Part shown: in pieces, positions 27,056-63,233 of the stretch
How positions within the stretch are numbered: position 1 is the first letter of the stretch
How the letters are laid out: every line of letters begins with the position of its first letter
Source of the DNA: an uncultured Acidobacteriota bacterium
GTDB taxonomy: Bacteria > Acidobacteriota > Thermoanaerobaculia > Gp7-AA8
Reading direction: 5' to 3'
Assembly: GCA_963822445.1 (NCBI GenBank)
Contig: CAWGHO010000002.1
Location: 1,760,001-1,824,000 of the forward strand
DNA: 64,000 nt
Notes under the pieces: model-generated
What the model saw: the letters and a program-made list of their open reading frames with translations, nothing else
Database searches by the model: none
What the model was told of the DNA's origin: nothing
Program-made: the position numbers and the translations under genes

Positions 27056-28665
27056 TACAGCCTCATTGACTTGCCGACGCGCCGGACCGGCTCGTAGCGC
27101 GTCAGCCATTCGATGCGATCGGGAAAGAAGCTGGCCGGCGTTTCGCCGATGGCGATCCAGCCGGAGACGGGATGATCGGGCAGCGGGTCGTGAGCGATGC
27201 CGTGATGCTGGAGCGCCGCCCCGGTCGAGTAACGGATCCAGACGCGCTCGATCTTCAACTCGCGCATGACCTTTTCGAGGCGGAGCACGTCCTGCCCCCA
27301 GTCGAGATTGCTGTCCGTGGCGATGCGCCACGGCTTTCCGTCCGCCGCTTCGTTGAACCAGGGCAGGTAATCGGGATGCTGCGTCGCGACACCGAGGAAG
27401 AGCCAGGCCAGGAGTGCGGTCATTCCGAGTTGCGCGAAAGGACCGCGCGCGCGCCGCCAGAGCTCGACGGTCGCGAATCCGGCGATGACCGCAAGCGAGG
27501 CGTACATCGGCAAGACGTGACGCACGCCGATGTTGATCGAGCCGGTCATGGCCACGAGGAGGATCACCATCGGAATCAATGCGTGCTCGATTCCGCGGCG
27601 CGCGCGGAAGGCGAGGAACGCGCCGACGAGCGTGAGGAGGAGAAACGGGATCGGCGTTTTGAAGAAGACGACCACCGGGAAGTAGTGCCACCAGCCCTTG
27701 GTGCCGGTCTGGCCGAGGAAGTTGGTGAAGTGGCCGTCCTTGTCGTGTTGCTTGAGGATGCCGATGCCGACCGGCAGCGCCGGCGCGGGGATGGGCACGT
27801 TGTCGGAGAAGGCCCGGACCGCGGCGCGCGCCGGCTCGGGCACCATCATCTGCACGAAGAAGGATGCGCCGGGGAAGACTTTCGAGATGGGGCGGAAATC
27901 GAATTGGTAGCCGGCCCAGGTGACGAGGAAGGCTACGAGAGCCACGGCGGGGAGCGGGCGTCCCGCCCGCACCGGCGGCGCATCGTGCGCCGCCGTAAGT
28001 ACCGCCGGGCGCGACGCCCGGCGGGTGCGCGCGAGACGCGCGCTCCCCAGCAGCACCAGCGCAGTCGCGGGAAAGAACACGAGAAATGAGAATTTCGCGA
28101 GGACGCCGGCGCCGATCGCGGCGCCGAGGAGTGCGCCGCGTTTGACCGTGGGCGATTCGAGAAAGCGATCGAGTGCCAGCAATGCCAGGGGCAAGGTCGC
28201 TGTCGCGGCCATGTCCGTGGTGATCACGCCGGCGTGGCCGAGGATGGGCGGGAGGTTCGTGAACAGCGCCGTGGCCCAGATTGCCGCGGCCTGACCGAAC
28301 GCGCGGCGGGCCTGTTCGGCGACGGCGAGAATCGCGACGATCAACAGCAATAGATTGCCGATGCGTGCGCGCGCGAGATTCTTCAGATAGCGATCGCCGT
28401 GATACAGCAGGAAGTGTCCGCGGGCCGTGTCGCCGCTGGCCGGCGGATCGGGGAGGCCGGCCATGCGCAATGGCAGCGCGCTGAGCACGCGCGCGAGCGG
28501 CGGATGTCCGAGATCGGTGTAGCTGCCGCTCAGCCACATCCAGCCCGCCGCGAGGTGCACCGGCTCGTCATTGGTCGCGTTGAGCTTGCGATGGGTCGAG
28601 GCGACGCGCACGACGGCGAGGAGCGTCAGCAGCGCGATCGCGGCGATGTAGATCGATCGCTTCAT
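27043..28665 (-). CDS. ArnT/PMT-like (GT-C) glycosyltransferase, paralog 1
   Basis: TNDEPVH, HPPL, multi-TM, GWWHYFP, DSNLDWGQD. Confidence 0.8.
   Translation of the reverse strand: MKRSIYIAAIALLTLLAVVRVASTHRKLNATNDEPVHLAAGWMWLSGSYTDLGHPPLARVLSALPLRMAGLPDPPASGDTARGHFLLYHGDRYLKNLARARIGNLLLLIVAILAVAEQARRAFGQAAAIWATALFTNLPPILGHAGVITTDMAATATLPLALLALDRFLESPTVKRGALLGAAIGAGVLAKFSFLVFFPATALVLLGSARLARTRRASRPAVLTAAHDAPPVRAGRPLPAVALVAFLVTWAGYQFDFRPISKVFPGASFFVQMMVPEPARAAVRAFSDNVPIPAPALPVGIGILKQHDKDGHFTNFLGQTGTKGWWHYFPVVVFFKTPIPFLLLTLVGAFLAFRARRGIEHALIPMVILLVAMTGSINIGVRHVLPMYASLAVIAGFATVELWRRARGPFAQLGMTALLAWLFLGVATQHPDYLPWFNEAADGKPWRIATDSNLDWGQDVLRLEKVMRELKIERVWIRYSTGAALQHHGIAHDPLPDHPVSGWIAIGETPASFFPDRIEWLTRYEPVRRVGKSMRLYYVP
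27949..28048. repeat. Family C multi-hairpin REP element, in-frame inside the GT-C gene
   Basis: GGGGAGCGGGCGTCCCGCCCGCACC ... GGTGCGCGCGAGACGCGCGCTCCCC; four hairpins. Confidence 0.8.
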
Positions 28666-35916: not shown

Positions 35917-37353
35917 GTGAAGCGCGATTCCGCGGCCAACCCCCTCACCGAGCGGTACGCCTCGAAAGAGATGTCGTACCTCTTCTCCTCCAACTTCAAG
36001 TTCCGCACGTGGCGGAGGCTCTGGGTGGCGCTGGCCGAGGCGGAGAAGGAGCTGGGGCTGCCCATCACCGACGCCCAGATCGCCGAGCTCCGCGCGAACC
36101 TCGAGGAGATCAACTACGAGGACGCGGAGCGCCGCGAGCGCGAGGTGCGCCACGACGTGATGTCCCACATTCACGCCTTCGGCCTCCAGGCCCCCTCCGC
36201 GAAGGGCATCATCCACCTCGGCGCCACCTCGGCCTACGTCACCGACAACACCGACATCCTGCAGATGGCCGAGGGGCTGCGCATCATGCGCGGGCGCATC
36301 GTCAATCTGATGTCCAAGCTGCGCGACTTCGCCTGGCAATGGCGGGGAACACCGGCGCTCGCGTTCACCCACTTTCAGCCCGCGCAGCTCACAACCGTCG
36401 GCAAGCGAGCCACGCTCTGGCTGCACGAGCTGCTGCTCGATTACCGCGAAATCGAGTTCCGCCACTCCCAGCTCGCCCTCCTCGGCGTGAAAGGCGCGAC
36501 CGGGACGCAGGCCTCGTTTCTCAACCTTTTCGACGGCGATGAATCGAAGGTCAATCGCCTCGAGCAGCTCGTCGCGGAGAAAGTCGGGCTGAAACGGAGC
36601 TATCCCGTTTCCGGCCAGACCTACTCCCGCAAAGTCGATTCGCAGGTCGTCAACGCGCTCTCGGGCTTCGCCCAGTCGGCGTCGAAATTCGGGTACGACA
36701 TGCGGCTGCTGCAGCATCTTCGCGAGATCGAAGAGCCCTTCGAACAGGACCAGGTCGGCAGCTCGGCGATGGCGTACAAGCGCAACCCGATGCGCGCGGA
36801 GCGCATCGACGGTCTGGCCCGGCACCTGATCATCAACGCGCTCAATCCGGCGATGACCGCGGCCACGCAATGGTTCGAACGGACTCTCGACGATTCAGCA
36901 AATCGGCGGATCGCCATTCCGGAGGCGTTCCTCGCCGCGGATGCGATCGCGTTGCTGTACGACAACGTGGTCGGCGGACTGGTCGTGCACGAGGAAGTGA
37001 TCGCGGCCAACGTGCGGCGCGAGCTGCCGTTCATGATGACCGAGAATCTGATGATGGAAGGCGCGCGGCGCGGCGGCGATCGGCAGGTGCTCCACGAGCG
37101 CGTGCGCATCCATTCGCAGGCGGCCGCGGACGCGATGAAAGGCGGCGCGGCGACGAACGATCTCTTCGAGCGCATCGCCGCTGACCCGATTTTCGGCATC
37201 GATCGCGCGGCCATCGAAGAGCTGGCCCGTCCGGAGAATTACACCGGTCTGGCGAAGCAGCAGACCGAACGCTTCCTGATCGAAGACGTCGATCCGATTC
37301 TCGAGGCGGAGCGCGCCTTCATCAGTTCCGAAGTGGGCGAGGTGCGCGTTTGA
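35917..37353 (+). CDS. purB: Adenylosuccinate lyase
   Basis: RHDVMSH, HLGATS, FTHFQPAQ, GSSAMAYKRNPM. Confidence 0.95.
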   Translation: MKRDSAANPLTERYASKEMSYLFSSNFKFRTWRRLWVALAEAEKELGLPITDAQIAELRANLEEINYEDAERREREVRHDVMSHIHAFGLQAPSAKGIIHLGATSAYVTDNTDILQMAEGLRIMRGRIVNLMSKLRDFAWQWRGTPALAFTHFQPAQLTTVGKRATLWLHELLLDYREIEFRHSQLALLGVKGATGTQASFLNLFDGDESKVNRLEQLVAEKVGLKRSYPVSGQTYSRKVDSQVVNALSGFAQSASKFGYDMRLLQHLREIEEPFEQDQVGSSAMAYKRNPMRAERIDGLARHLIINALNPAMTAATQWFERTLDDSANRRIAIPEAFLAADAIALLYDNVVGGLVVHEEVIAANVRRELPFMMTENLMMEGARRGGDRQVLHERVRIHSQAAADAMKGGAATNDLFERIAADPIFGIDRAAIEELARPENYTGLAKQQTERFLIEDVDPILEAERAFISSEVGEVRV

Positions 37354-38366
37354 AGGGGAGTGGCCGTCTCGGCCGCGTCTGCTGGGCGTCGCGCCCGGCA
37401 GTCTCGCTCGGGGCGGGACGCCCCGAGCACGCGGGCGGGACGCCCGCTCCCCGCATCATTGCCCTGGCGCTGATCGCGTTCGTGATGGCCTGCGCCAGCA
37501 CGGCGCCGCCTCCGCCGAAAGTCGCCGAGGTGATGGAGGGGGTGGCGAGCTGGTACGGCGAGGAGTTCGCCGGACGAACGACGGCGAACGGCGAGATCTT
37601 CGATCCGCTGCAGCTCACCGCGGCCCATCGCACGCTGCCGTTCGGAACGGTCGTCGACGTGACCAATCCCAAGACCAAGCAAAGCGTGCGCGTCCGCGTG
37701 AACGATCGCGGGCCGTACATCGGTGGACGAGTGATCGATCTCTCGTATGCCGCGGCGCAGCGAATCGGGTTGATCGAGCCGGGCATCGGCGAGGTGCAGA
37801 TTGCCGTGGTGAAAGTCGGCAGCGGCGATCGCGAACCGCCCGCACCGCTCGAAGTGACGATCGCCGAAGCGCCGAAGACCGCGCCCGTCGCAGGCGATCC
37901 GCCGCCGGTCGCGTTTCCCGTTCCCGCGGCTTCTGAATCGACGGTCGAGCAGATTCCGGTGGTCGTCGATCGCGTGGAGATCGTCGAGAACCGCGGCGGC
38001 GTCGACACGCGACGGCAGGTCTCGGCAGATGGAAAAACGATCGAGAACGTCCCCGTCGACGGAGGGCCGCCGGTTCCTTCGTCTCCCGGGCACAGTTCAG
38101 CCGAAGCGCTCGATCGCTCGCGCCGCATGGCGCCGCCACCCGTGCGCACGAAAGGTCAGTACGTGGTGCAGGTCGGCGCGTTCGCGGTGGAAGAAAACGC
38201 GAAGCTGCTGCAGGAGCGTCTGGTGAAAATCGGGCAACCCGCGTGGATCGATCGCGACGATCTCTTCCGCGTGCGCCTCGGTCCGTTCGCCACGAGGGAC
38301 CAGGCCGTGGCGGCCCGGTCCTCGCTCGAGGCGAACGGGATCAGTGCAATCGTCTTGGCCGAGTAG
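37350..38366 (+). CDS. rlpA: Septal ring lytic transglycosylase RlpA with SPOR domain
   Basis: GVASWYG, TAAHRTLPFG, VNDRGP, IDLS; C-terminal YVVQVGAF SPOR domain; lipobox VMAC. Confidence 0.9.
   Translation: MKGSGRLGRVCWASRPAVSLGAGRPEHAGGTPAPRIIALALIAFVMACASTAPPPPKVAEVMEGVASWYGEEFAGRTTANGEIFDPLQLTAAHRTLPFGTVVDVTNPKTKQSVRVRVNDRGPYIGGRVIDLSYAAAQRIGLIEPGIGEVQIAVVKVGSGDREPPAPLEVTIAEAPKTAPVAGDPPPVAFPVPAASESTVEQIPVVVDRVEIVENRGGVDTRRQVSADGKTIENVPVDGGPPVPSSPGHSSAEALDRSRRMAPPPVRTKGQYVVQVGAFAVEENAKLLQERLVKIGQPAWIDRDDLFRVRLGPFATRDQAVAARSSLEANGISAIVLAE
37355..37452. repeat. Family C REP element inserted in-frame in the rlpA signal peptide
   Basis: GGGGAGTGGCCGTCTCGGCCGCGT ... ACGCGGGCGGGACGCCCGCTCCCC. 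Confidence 0.8.
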
Positions 38367-60985: not shown

Positions 60986-62518
60986 ATGCCCCGCCCCTTC
61001 CTGATTCTCATCGTTCTCGACGGCTTCGGCTGCCGCAGCGAGCGGGAGTTCAACGCGATCGCGCAGGCCGAAACGCCGCGTTTTTCCCGGCTCTGGCACG
61101 AGCACACCTGGACCACGCTCGAAGCGTCCGGCCTCGCCGTGGGGTTGCCGGAAGGGCAGATGGGGAACTCCGAGGTGGGGCATCTGAACATGGGGGCGGG
61201 GCGGGTCATCGATCAGGACATCGTCCGCATCTCCAAGTCCATCCGCGGCCATGAGCTCGAGACGAACGCGACCTTCGTCGATGCGGTGAAGGGCTCGCGC
61301 AACGTGCATCTCACGGGACTGCTCTCCGACGGCGGCGTGCACTCGCTGCAGGAGCACCTGCACGGAATGATCGACGCCGCGCTGGCCCTCGGCGCGGAAA
61401 ACGTGTTCGTTCACGCCATCCTCGACGGCCGCGACACGCCACCGAAATCAGCAGAGCGTTACCTCGGCCATCTGCTCGCGCACATCAAAGACAAGCCGAA
61501 GGCGCGGCTGGCGACGGTCATCGGCCGCTACTTCGCCATGGACCGCGATCATCGCTGGGAGCGCGTCCAGCGCGCGTACGACCTGATGACCCTCGGCGTC
61601 GGGACGGAAACGAAAGACCCGATCGAGACCATGCGCCGCTTTTACGAACAGGGCGTGACCGACGAGTTCATGGAGCCGATCTCCGTCATCACCCCGGAAG
61701 GTTCGCATCTCGGCCGCGTCGAAGACGGCGACGCGCTGCTCTTCTTCAACTTCCGCGCGGACCGGATGCGCCAGATCGTGATCGCCTTCAAAGACGAGCA
61801 CTTCACGCCGTTCAACCGCGCCGTGCATCCGCGGACGCGCGTGGTGACGATGAATCAGTACCACGAGAAGTTCGACCTTCCCGTCGTCTACCCACCCGTC
61901 GCATGCATCAACAACCTCGGCCAGGTGATCTCACGCGCCGGGCTGACGCAGCTTCGGATCGCCGAGACCGAGAAGTACGCGCATGTCACGTTCTTCTTCA
62001 ACGGCGGGTCCGATCTGAAGTTCGACGGTGAAGATCGCATCCTCGTCCCCTCGCCGAAAGTCGCGACGTACGATCTCAAGCCGGAGATGTCGGTGTTCGA
62101 AGTGACGGACAAGGTCGTCGAGGCGATCGCGGCGCGAAAGTACGACGTGGTGATCATGAACATCGCCAACCCCGACATGGTCGGTCACACCGGCGTCATG
62201 GATGCCGCGGTGAAGGCCGTTCGCGACACGGACATCGCGGTCGGACGGATTCTCGATTGGGTAGAGAAAGTTGACGGCGTGGCGTTGATTACGGCAGACC
62301 ACGGAAACTGCGAATTGATGTTCGACACGGCCACGGGCCAGCCGCACACCGCGCACACGACGAATCCCGTGCCGCTGATCCTCGTCGATGCGAAGAAACG
62401 GTTCGGAACGCTGCGCGGCGGCGGCGTGCTGTCGAACGTGGCGCCGACGATTCTCACCATTCTCGGCATCGACAAGCCGGCGGAGATGACTGCCGAGTCG
62501 CTGCTGGTGCCGGCGTGA
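60986..62518 (+). CDS. gpmI: 2,3-bisphosphoglycerate-independent phosphoglycerate mutase
   Basis: LDGFG, GQMGNSEVGH, DGGVHS, AETEKYAHVTFF, NPDMVGHTG, TADHGN. Confidence 0.97.
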   Translation: MPRPFLILIVLDGFGCRSEREFNAIAQAETPRFSRLWHEHTWTTLEASGLAVGLPEGQMGNSEVGHLNMGAGRVIDQDIVRISKSIRGHELETNATFVDAVKGSRNVHLTGLLSDGGVHSLQEHLHGMIDAALALGAENVFVHAILDGRDTPPKSAERYLGHLLAHIKDKPKARLATVIGRYFAMDRDHRWERVQRAYDLMTLGVGTETKDPIETMRRFYEQGVTDEFMEPISVITPEGSHLGRVEDGDALLFFNFRADRMRQIVIAFKDEHFTPFNRAVHPRTRVVTMNQYHEKFDLPVVYPPVACINNLGQVISRAGLTQLRIAETEKYAHVTFFFNGGSDLKFDGEDRILVPSPKVATYDLKPEMSVFEVTDKVVEAIAARKYDVVIMNIANPDMVGHTGVMDAAVKAVRDTDIAVGRILDWVEKVDGVALITADHGNCELMFDTATGQPHTAHTTNPVPLILVDAKKRFGTLRGGGVLSNVAPTILTILGIDKPAEMTAESLLVPA

Positions 62519-62521
62519 GGA

Positions 62522-62624
62522 CGTACGGCGGGCGTCCCGCCCGCTTCGCGCGGCGCGTCACGCGCCGCGCTGATCCCGCCGGGCCAGCGGCCCGTCGCAA
62601 AGCGGGCGAGACGCCCGCCGTACG
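62522..62624. repeat. Intergenic family C multi-hairpin REP element
   Basis: CGTACGGCGGGCGTCCCGCCCGCTT ... AAGCGGGCGAGACGCCCGCCGTACG. Confidence 0.82.
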
Positions 62625-62636
62625 CGGAGGGCACCC

Positions 62637-63233
62637 GTGACCCGCCAGCTCATCCTCGTCCGCCACGGCGAGACGCTGCACAACGTCGCGGGGATCGCCC
62701 AGGGCTGGAACGACAGCGAGCTCTCCGATCGCGGCAAGCAGCAGGTCAGCAAGCTCGCGGAGCGGCTGCGCAAGTACAACCCCGACGCGCTGTTCTCCTC
62801 ACCCCTCGGCCGCGCGTTGTCCACGGCGACGGCGATCATGGACATCCTGAAGATGGAGATCCAGGTTCTCGAAGATCTTCGCGAGATGAGCTACGGGGGC
62901 TGGGAGAACCGGTCCTTTCTCGACATCCGCCGCGACGAGCCCAGCGTCTACGAGAGCTGGATCGCCGATCCGGACGCGCCCAGCCCCGACGGCGAGTCCC
63001 ACAATCACGTTCGCGCGCGCATGGAGCGGGCTTTCGAGGCCGTTGCTGCGGCGGAACGTCCGGTGCTGGTCACACACGGAACGGCCATTCGCATCGCCGC
63101 GACGGCGCTGCTCGATGTGCCGGTCATGACCTCGCGAAACTTCGCCCAGGACAACGCGGCCATCAACATCTTCAACTGGCGCACCGACCGCTGGGTCCTG
63201 AAAATCTGGAACGACACGACGCATTGCGGATGA
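62637..63233 (+). CDS. Histidine phosphatase family protein
   Basis: RHGET, SSPLGRA, LREMSYGGWE, VTHG. Confidence 0.9.
   Translation: MTRQLILVRHGETLHNVAGIAQGWNDSELSDRGKQQVSKLAERLRKYNPDALFSSPLGRALSTATAIMDILKMEIQVLEDLREMSYGGWENRSFLDIRRDEPSVYESWIADPDAPSPDGESHNHVRARMERAFEAVAAAERPVLVTHGTAIRIAATALLDVPVMTSRNFAQDNAAINIFNWRTDRWVLKIWNDTTHCG

Follow-up and report, generated by a model that had tools for sequence, protein, structure and literature searches.

A REPIN-type palindromic repeat in frame within the predicted lipoprotein signal peptide of an acidobacterial rlpA gene

In the genome of an uncultured Acidobacteriota bacterium, the septal lytic transglycosylase family gene rlpA follows directly on purB, and its predicted lipoprotein signal peptide contains a GC-rich, four-hairpin palindromic repeat. 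We describe this repeat, the gene that holds it and the family to which it belongs. The DNA analysed, referred to as the window, is a stretch of 64,000 nt (positions 1,760,001 to 1,824,000 of contig CAWGHO010000002.1); coordinates without a prefix are window positions. The source genome, G000, has 6.0 Mb with 64.5% GC in contigs C1-C3. An earlier reading of the window, here called the original prediction, had placed a palindrome of 96 nt (32 codons) between TTG AAG and CGC ATC ATT at the start of rlpA. It had proposed that the repeat is either tolerated as an extension of the n-region of the signal peptide or removed or bypassed at the level of RNA or translation.

Results

An in-frame palindrome at the purB-rlpA junction

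The features of the locus are listed in Table 1. The rlpA open reading frame (ORF) scores 145.4 bits against NCBIfam model TIGR00413 (cut-off 82.15) and has the layout of the RlpA family, with a DPBB_1 domain (residues 63-151, 85.8 bits, ~37536-37802) and a SPOR domain (residues 268-336, 58.3 bits, ~38151-38357), both from Pfam, behind a predicted lipoprotein signal. The TTG at 37350, taken as the rlpA start, overlaps the purB stop codon, TGA at 37351-37353. From there the frame reads TTG AAG, 96 nt of GC palindrome, CGC ATC ATT, the hydrophobic core and V-M-A-C, in the order originally described, with 0 stops or frameshifts over 338 codons. Past the TTG, the only in-frame ATG, GTG or TTG codons are GTG45 and ATG46, immediately 5' of Ala47-Cys48. 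The earlier observation that no ATG or GTG precedes the last residues ahead of the cysteine thus holds, and no canonical start downstream of the element keeps the hydrophobic core. Relatives have hexamers resembling the Shine-Dalgarno-like GAGGTG at the equivalent position. A scan of 37000-37700 returned 0 promoter-like and 0 terminator-like sites, and the element, having no T-tract, is not a canonical terminator.

Within the predicted signal peptide, the n-region (residues 1-35) carries Lys2, arginines at positions 6, 9, 15, 24 and 35, and one Glu. It is followed by a 12-residue h-region, Ile36-Ala47, and by the lipobox V-M-A-C, whose Cys48 is encoded at 37491-37493. Lipobox with cysteine, hydrophobic h-region and basic n-region are thus all present in the sequence pattern.

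The genome holds another DPBB-domain (RlpA-like) locus, at G000:C2:1850805-1851221 on the minus strand (E 1.7e-20), some 53 kb downstream of rlpA. There is one TAA within the match, and the locus could be either a shorter paralogue or a broken gene.

Table 1. Features of the purB-rlpA locus, copies of the repeat family and the RAYT-like gene (positions in the window unless a genome and contig are given)
Feature	Position	Strand	Basis and remarks
purB (adenylosuccinate lyase)	35917..37353	+	ORF; Pfam Lyase_1 + ADSL_C; purB-rlpA synteny in 19/19 relatives
GAGGTG, Shine-Dalgarno-like, within purB end	37339..37344	+	7 nt 5' of TTG; putative ribosome-binding role
rlpA (septal lytic transglycosylase family)	37350..38366	+	338-codon ORF; Pfam, NCBIfam
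TTG, sole canonical start retaining the signal peptide	37350..37352	+	ATG in 19/19 relatives
Predicted lipoprotein signal peptide, 47 residues	37350..37490	+	Sequence pattern of the translation
REPIN-type copy, minor GGGGAG-foot type	37355..37452	+	98 nt; fold, nhmmer family, alignment/covariation
Foot stem of rlpA element (GGGGAGT / GCTCCCC)	37355-37361 paired with 37446-37452	+	Fold, alignment
32 codons (Gly3-Pro34) contributed by the element	37356..37451	+	Translation; stop-free; missing in 16/19 relatives and in a metagenome contig
Hairpin 1 (REP unit)	37362-37374	+	Fold, alignment
Hairpin 2	37379-37401	+	Fold, alignment
Hairpin 3	37406-37428	+	Fold, alignment
Hairpin 4 (inverted REP unit)	37433-37445	+	Fold, alignment
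Window copy in PMT_2-family membrane glycosyltransferase ORF	27946..28051	-	In frame, in loop between hydrophobic segments
Window copy, major GTACG-foot type	62519..62625	+	Intergenic; starts 1-5 nt past iPGM stop, ends 12 nt before histidine-phosphatase gene
Mid-gene copy, class A penicillin-binding protein	G000:C1:1349219-1349325 (L026)		Inside transglycosylase (GT51) domain; atypical copy, three hairpins + one extra
Mid-gene copy, beta-lactamase-fold/NamZ fusion			Within beta-lactamase domain; Pfam
Mid-gene copy, HI0933-like oxidoreductase			Pfam
Mid-gene copy, double M16 peptidase			In linker; Pfam
Copy at gene 5' end, methyltransferase	G000:C3:728891-728996 (L030)		GGGGAG foot; ATG ACC, element, CAT TAC; in frame
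Copy at gene 5' end, GT4 glycosyltransferase	G000:C3:780407-780513 (L031)		GGGGAG foot; element past codon 3, in frame
Copy at gene 5' end, chromate transporter (ChrA) ORF	G000:C1:269253-269355 (L032)		No ATG/GTG/TTG 5' of element
RAYT-like tyrosine transposase gene	G000:C2:~1610850-1611454	-	Pfam, NCBIfam, motifs

Orthologs and an empty site

RlpA orthologs were found in all 41 genomes searched, and the 19 best loci from the same genus (one of them, in G002, unpublished) were compared with the window. In every one of them rlpA follows purB and its ATG overlaps the purB TGA. Sixteen (15 of 18 without G002) have an 18-residue signal that ends in A-Y-G-C and holds no insert. A still closer comparison is provided by a soil metagenome contig of 691 nt, ~93% identical to the window, which shows 30 differences from 36901-37354 and 6 from 37467-37556. 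In place of the 112 nt that separate these blocks in the window, the contig holds 19 nt and is on balance 93 nt, equal to 31 codons, shorter. In the rlpA frame it encodes a 17-codon signal starting M-K-Q-R, with hydrophobic core and lipobox as here. Both comparisons agree with the suggestion, made originally from a deletion on paper, that the 96 nt were added to a canonical short signal. The net gain of rlpA relative to these relatives is 30-31 codons, and the empty site in a contig so similar suggests that the element was inserted recently in this lineage.

The same site has received other sequences. Two congeners, G013 and G021, carry there a different insert of 26 codons, also in frame, with hairpin arms made of tandem 8-mers. 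The G013 insert folds with -58.8 kcal/mol (z -5.4), while that of G021 is degraded as a hairpin (z -1.4) and still open. The tandem-8-mer unit pattern occurs 111 times in the G013 genome and 955 times in that of G021, and is absent (0 occurrences) from G000 and from G015. The latter genome has an n-region 18 residues longer, with the cysteine at position 36 (L019); folding ruled out a palindrome in its insert (z -0.05). As this extension is non-palindromic, n-region length evidently varies even without a recognisable repeat.

A dispersed family of four-hairpin repeats

The RNA of 37340-37470 has a minimum free energy of -92.3 kcal/mol, against -70.6 +/- 3.7 for shuffled sequences (z -5.8; 0 of 200 dinucleotide shuffles as good). 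Pairing of the foot stem widens the element slightly beyond the 96 nt of the original prediction, to 37355-37452. The 21-mer named in that prediction occurs 3 times in the 64-kb window at up to 3 mismatches, with 0.08 occurrences expected. The copies that it had placed in an intergenic region at 62522-62624 and in a coding sequence at 27949-28048 are real, with extents refined to those of Table 1. The intergenic copy is flanked by the iPGM gene (60986-62518) and the histidine-phosphatase gene (62637-63233). A search of 36800-38000 against Rfam gave nothing at gathering score, the nearest matches, MIR1858 (27 bits vs 137) and P10 (16 vs 37), being at chance level.

With a profile built from the three window copies, nhmmer returned 112 hits in the G000 genome. 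They merge into 57 loci, 41 of them full length (100-112 nt), with hits on both strands because the element is a quasi-palindrome. The consensus computed with RNAalifold comprises 39 of the 41 full-length copies (the atypical L101 was dropped, and C3:1096830-1096942 is not included). It shows a foot stem of 6-7 bp that closes four hairpins, with 37 pairs in all, 24 of which display compensatory changes; alignment columns were matched manually with window positions. A conserved repetitive extragenic palindrome (REP) unit and its reverse complement form hairpins 1 and 4, whereas hairpins 2 and 3 vary in sequence with their pairing kept. Standard pairs fill 96.3% of 1,440 cells of the alignment, compared with 80.2 +/- 0.6% when partners are shuffled (0 of 500 as high) and 33-45% when they are slid by 1-3 columns.

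Two co-varying versions of the foot exist, a major one, GTACG/CGTAC, and a minor one, GGGGAG/CTCCCC, to which the rlpA copy belongs. Of the hexamers that precede the commonest REP hairpin, 43 terminate in GTACG and 6 in GTAGG, and 8 correspond to the GGGGA(G) foot. The copy adjoining the RAYT-like gene described below bears GTAGG, so the head tag appears to be GTAS rather than strict GTAG.

An exact 17-nt hairpin core occurs 68 times in the G000 genome, and an 18-nt REP core, at no more than one mismatch, 65 times (reversed control, 0). The distribution of the 18-nt core is patchy: five congeners have 80, 27, 12, 9 and 7 occurrences and the other genomes 0-4, and it is present in 23 of the 41 in all. 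In metagenome run X3, two short contigs match only hairpins 3-4 (37411-37447) and then pass into unrelated sequence, which indicates that related REP units occur in other soil organisms. The sole tandem array seen lies at G000:C1:1304313-1304588 and consists of three head-to-tail copies, one partial and two full, with shared feet.

A RAYT-like gene flanked by copies

Among the four Y1_Tnp matches in the G000 genome, only one is surrounded by copies of the repeat. A partial copy (1610786-1610848) stands behind the 3' end of this gene and a full copy (1611474-1603) 20 nt before its ATG. The predicted protein matches Pfam Y1_Tnp with 27.4 bits (cut-off 23), HVH and Y..NP motifs are visible, and its best NCBIfam match is REP_Tyr_transpos (E 7e-18), hence our designation as a gene resembling those of REP-associated tyrosine transposases (RAYTs). 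Inverted conserved REPs, a hairpin spacer with compensatory changes and copies on both sides of the RAYT-like gene together argue that the family is, by its sequence features, a REPIN/RAYT system, a REPIN being a hairpin-forming doublet of REPs.

Two features of the gene count against this assignment. The score of 64.8 bits on REP_Tyr_transpos is under the curated cut-off of 80, and the ORF (L023:349-2052 (-), equivalent to G000:C2:~1609751-1611454) has no stop near the expected end at ~residue 205. Either the stop was lost with the insertion of a repeat or the gene is decaying. As it stands, the ORF stays open across the partial REP copy and for a further ~360 codons, which lie antisense to the 3' end of uvrA.

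Copies apparently within coding sequence

Copies were called coding or intergenic with our own crude codon-score of the flanking sequence, and the candidates were then checked with Pfam; two partial copies, C2:2068408-2068457 and C3:26362-26418, were left unassigned. By the same crude score, 48 of the 57 loci lack an ORF that runs across them with coding-like sequence on either side, and the family is thus mostly extragenic. The remaining 9 (16%), rlpA included, appear to lie in coding sequence, and all of them are in frame and open. The element is stop-free in a mean of 4.74 of the 6 frames. About a quarter of random insertions would be expected to keep a gene open, since one third would be in frame and ~0.8 of these stop-free. 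The precedent of the Rickettsia palindromic elements (RPEs), invoked in the original prediction for insertion in frame within genes, would find a counterpart in this dispersed family. The accompanying idea of testing copies for lengths divisible by three proved uninformative as it stood. Foot-to-foot lengths of the 40 measurable copies, whose boundaries are uncertain by a few bases, fall into the three remainders as 10, 15 and 15, and in-gene copies (106, 101, 100, 98 and 99 nt) are not multiples of three as a group. Net sizes must come from orthologs.

For five mid-gene copies, either a single Pfam domain spans the element or one ORF has domains on either side of it. In the penicillin-binding protein gene, the interval measures 117 nt against 21 nt in 7/7 orthologs, a gain of 96 nt or exactly 32 codons. 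In the PMT_2-family gene, 111 nt separate the anchors, against 54-57 nt in 5/7 relatives. Hairpins are found in frame in the same beta-lactamase loop in 2/7 relatives (L082, L083) and in the same PMT loop in 3/7 (L066, L069, L070). Several of these are built of tandem 8-9-mers, unlike the REPIN-type element described here. A further candidate, in the beta-lactamase loop of G014 (L085), looked like a palindrome by eye and was rejected by its z of 0.06.

Three other copies lie, like that in rlpA, at the 5' ends of genes, where orthologs show no other usable start. Orthologs of the methyltransferase begin M-x-(H/Y)-Y-R-D-D-L. In the ChrA ORF, nothing ahead of the conserved N-terminus could serve as a start except two GTGs within the element, so that the start codon of the putative transporter seems to come from the repeat. 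The GT4 copy has an internal ATG, which could serve as a rescue start.

Discussion

The rlpA copy as a probable translated extension of the n-region

We consider it probable that the element in rlpA is translated as a 30-31-residue extension of a cleaved n-region, and that initiation is provided by ribosomes that have just finished purB. The sequence of events can be pictured as follows. A REPIN-type repeat, made of two inverted REP hairpins, a two-hairpin spacer and a foot stem, would be mobilised in trans by a RAYT-like transposase whose gene lies elsewhere in the genome; the filled and empty sites among relatives bear on such mobilisation indirectly. One copy would have landed at the four-base overlap of the purB stop and the rlpA start, with codon 2 of rlpA on one side and, on the other, the Arg ahead of the hydrophobic core. 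The usual place of REP-type repeats is immediately past a stop codon; as the purB/rlpA overlap leaves no intergenic space, a copy arriving there would find itself inside rlpA. The insertion would have survived because it added a net number of bases divisible by three, because stops are all but absent from each frame of the element and because the length of the n-region, which is cleaved, is loosely constrained. Lipoprotein signals are removed entire by signal peptidase II. Since the element sits in the part that is cut off, mature RlpA is presumably unaltered.

As to the start of translation, the TTG is favoured because its position is fixed by 19 orthologs, the frame behind it is open, and with initiation at the next canonical start the signal would be lost altogether. 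Terminating ribosomes are known to reinitiate at overlapping start codons, a process referred to as translational coupling. Termination-reinitiation from purB is a plausible route here, since the hairpins should block a free 30S subunit, whereas a ribosome ending purB would already have melted their 5' arm. Translation would thus begin at the TTG with the 5' arm opened by purB ribosomes, and the extended signal would be translated and working, its start dependent on the translation of purB.

Some of our observations pull the other way. According to the lipobox pattern rule (PROSITE PS51257), the cysteine should fall among roughly the first 35 residues, whereas it occupies position 48 here and position 18 in 16 of 19 relatives. 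Initiation should be hindered by the structure of -92 kcal/mol, which begins 2 nt past the start codon. Where all 19 relatives have ATG, the weaker TTG is found here, a change that could equally mark relaxed selection. As the insertion is young, the intact downstream ORF is no proof of a working gene. Finally, among contigs from four metagenome DNA runs of related organisms none spans 37376-37409, and the assembly over the repeat should be regarded as provisional.

The second, third and fourth of these points, joined by the presence of a second DPBB-domain locus in the genome, might be taken to mean that the insertion has crippled rlpA, with the hairpins and the 35-residue n-region blocking translation or export, and that the gene is a young pseudogene or strongly down-regulated. 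We regard this as unlikely. A dead gene should show out-of-frame or stop-bearing insertions at least as often, and yet the frame of rlpA is exact, without a stop or frameshift over its 338 codons, and the other eight loci that appear to be coding are all open. The 26-codon palindromes kept in frame by two congeners at this position, of which one is degraded and yet open, point moreover to tolerance over a long term.

One could also envision that the element is not translated at all and forms an intercistronic RNA structure, with rlpA starting at ATC 37455, at ATT 37458, at a CTG or at GTG45/ATG46. Such an arrangement would be in keeping with the typical location of REP-type elements just past stop codons, exemplified in the window by the copy at 62519-62625. 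It would agree as well with the argument, made in the portion of Di Nocera et al. (2013; PMC3733652) that deals with such cases, that many NH2-terminal REPs are in fact extragenic and owe their position to mis-set starts. We give it slightly less credit than a crippled gene. Initiation at GTG45 or ATG46, the only canonical starts available, would deprive a periplasmic enzyme of its entire signal peptide. With ATC or ATT as the start, the n-region would contain no basic residue, and no Shine-Dalgarno-like motif stands ahead of these codons. There is also no promoter-like site in 37000-37700, and the ancestral start position is fixed by 19/19 relatives.

Excision of the 96 nt from the mRNA, or their bypass by the ribosome as in gene 60 of phage T4, would restore a short canonical signal, and has in its favor only the neat deletion that can be made in silico and the strong hairpin. 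It is most improbable: T4-type bypass needs a take-off codon that is matched by the landing codon and followed directly by a stop, whereas the junctions here (AAG GGG ... CCC CGC) offer no such pair and no stop, no Rfam family is found at gathering score (the best being a chance microRNA match, 27 bits vs 137), the frames of at least five genes run through mid-gene copies of the family with differing flanks, and removal is unneeded, the block being open and in frame.

The original prediction is thus supported overall. Of the two checks that it had set for itself, on a similarly long, non-palindromic N-terminus in orthologs and on a translation start downstream of the element, neither refuted it. 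Of the two possibilities that it had offered, the tolerated extension of the n-region is the one favoured, and removal at the RNA or translation level finds no support. Beyond what it had proposed, the element appears from its sequence to be a REPIN with its own RAYT-like transposase gene.

Reuse of sites and wider implications

The recurrence of palindromes at the same few positions may reflect survivorship at permissive places, or targeting. A bolder combination of ideas is that unrelated palindrome families (the RAYT-type REPIN, tandem-8-mer hairpins and others) repeatedly hit, in different species of this genus, the same few-codon spots (rlpA codon 2-3, the beta-lactamase loop, the PMT loop) because they are targeted there, and that rlpA synthesis depends strictly on purB ribosomes; to us this looks doubtful. 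If targeting were true, genes would hold heritable "landing pads", for instance DNA prone to form hairpins, overlapping stop and start codons or what is left of earlier palindromes.

The rlpA copy suggests a rule by which selfish hairpins persist in packed operons within the disposable n-region found at a stop/start overlap. It also carries a warning for annotation, as genes of this kind will escape predictors that require the cysteine within ~35 residues and may have their starts shifted by gene callers. The locus offers, in addition, testable material on how structured RNA beside a start codon might be tolerated through translational coupling. More generally, a phylum that has been little studied now contributes a RAYT-linked family, with a share of apparently coding copies (9/57) that is unusually high.

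Comparison with known palindromic repeats

The bacterial interspersed mosaic elements (BIMEs) of Escherichia coli are extragenic and have defined linker motifs, with sites for IHF or gyrase. The present family resembles E. coli REPs and BIMEs in its alternating palindromic units behind stop codons, where effects on mRNA stability and upstream termination are likely. REPs close to stop codons reportedly lower translation of the upstream gene, a finding attributed to Liang and Deutscher.

REPINs, as defined in the sections of Bertels and Rainey (2011; PMC3116915) on which we draw, consist of two conserved inverted REPs with a spacer selected for hairpin formation, as witnessed by compensatory changes. 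The likeness of the present family to REPIN/RAYT systems so described extends to inverted REP units, a hairpin spacer, tens of copies, a Y1 (HUH) gene with copies on both sides and a patchy occurrence among congeners. Differences exist as well: the spacer here is made of two well-formed hairpins, a foot of 6-7 bp closes a cloverleaf-like unit of ~100 nt, the foot exists in two co-varying versions, and GTAC rather than GTAG predominates in the head. In Pseudomonas fluorescens SBW25, the same sections report that 14 of 1,067 16-mers overlap genes, whereas 9 of 57 loci appear to be coding here.

RPEs are portrayed, in the passage devoted to them in a review of miniature inverted-repeat transposable elements (PMC10969869), as ~150 bp long and with no known transposase. 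Like RPEs, which are read as peptide, the elements described here are palindromic selfish repeats that appear to lie in frame in unrelated genes, where they may be translated, and to survive at structurally permissive places. Unlike RPEs, and going by that description, the present family is ~100 nt long, has ~80% GC and is linked to a RAYT-like gene, and a far larger share of RPEs is found in genes. Base composition and host make homology between the two unlikely.

A further parallel is with intragenic REPs. As related in the pertinent part of Di Nocera et al. (2013; PMC3733652), intragenic GTAG/CGTC REP dimers encode 20-30 residues, many of them NH2-terminal, and most of these are suspected to result from mis-annotated starts; proteins of Rickettsia decorated with RPE-1 are, according to the same text, expressed. 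The cases share the addition of residues by dimers, a good proportion of NH2-terminal positions and the implication that terminal insertions need not harm the protein. A literature search of limited scope, which did not extend to the supplementary tables of intragenic REPs of that paper (these may hold cases), found no REP-type repeat in a signal peptide. In contrast to the cases discussed in its text, the start of rlpA is pinned by 19 orthologs with no downstream start available, the host is by its taxonomic label an uncultured member of Thermoanaerobaculia, and the site is a lipoprotein signal peptide. The rlpA copy thereby provides an ortholog-anchored example of a 5'-end REP-type repeat whose place in coding sequence is most likely genuine and no artefact of annotation, a point that the text of that paper, in the part considered here, leaves open. 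While intragenic REPs and RPE-like elements were already known, what sets the present case apart is the combination of an ortholog-pinned start, a lipoprotein signal at a stop/start overlap and a four-hairpin unit with two types of foot.

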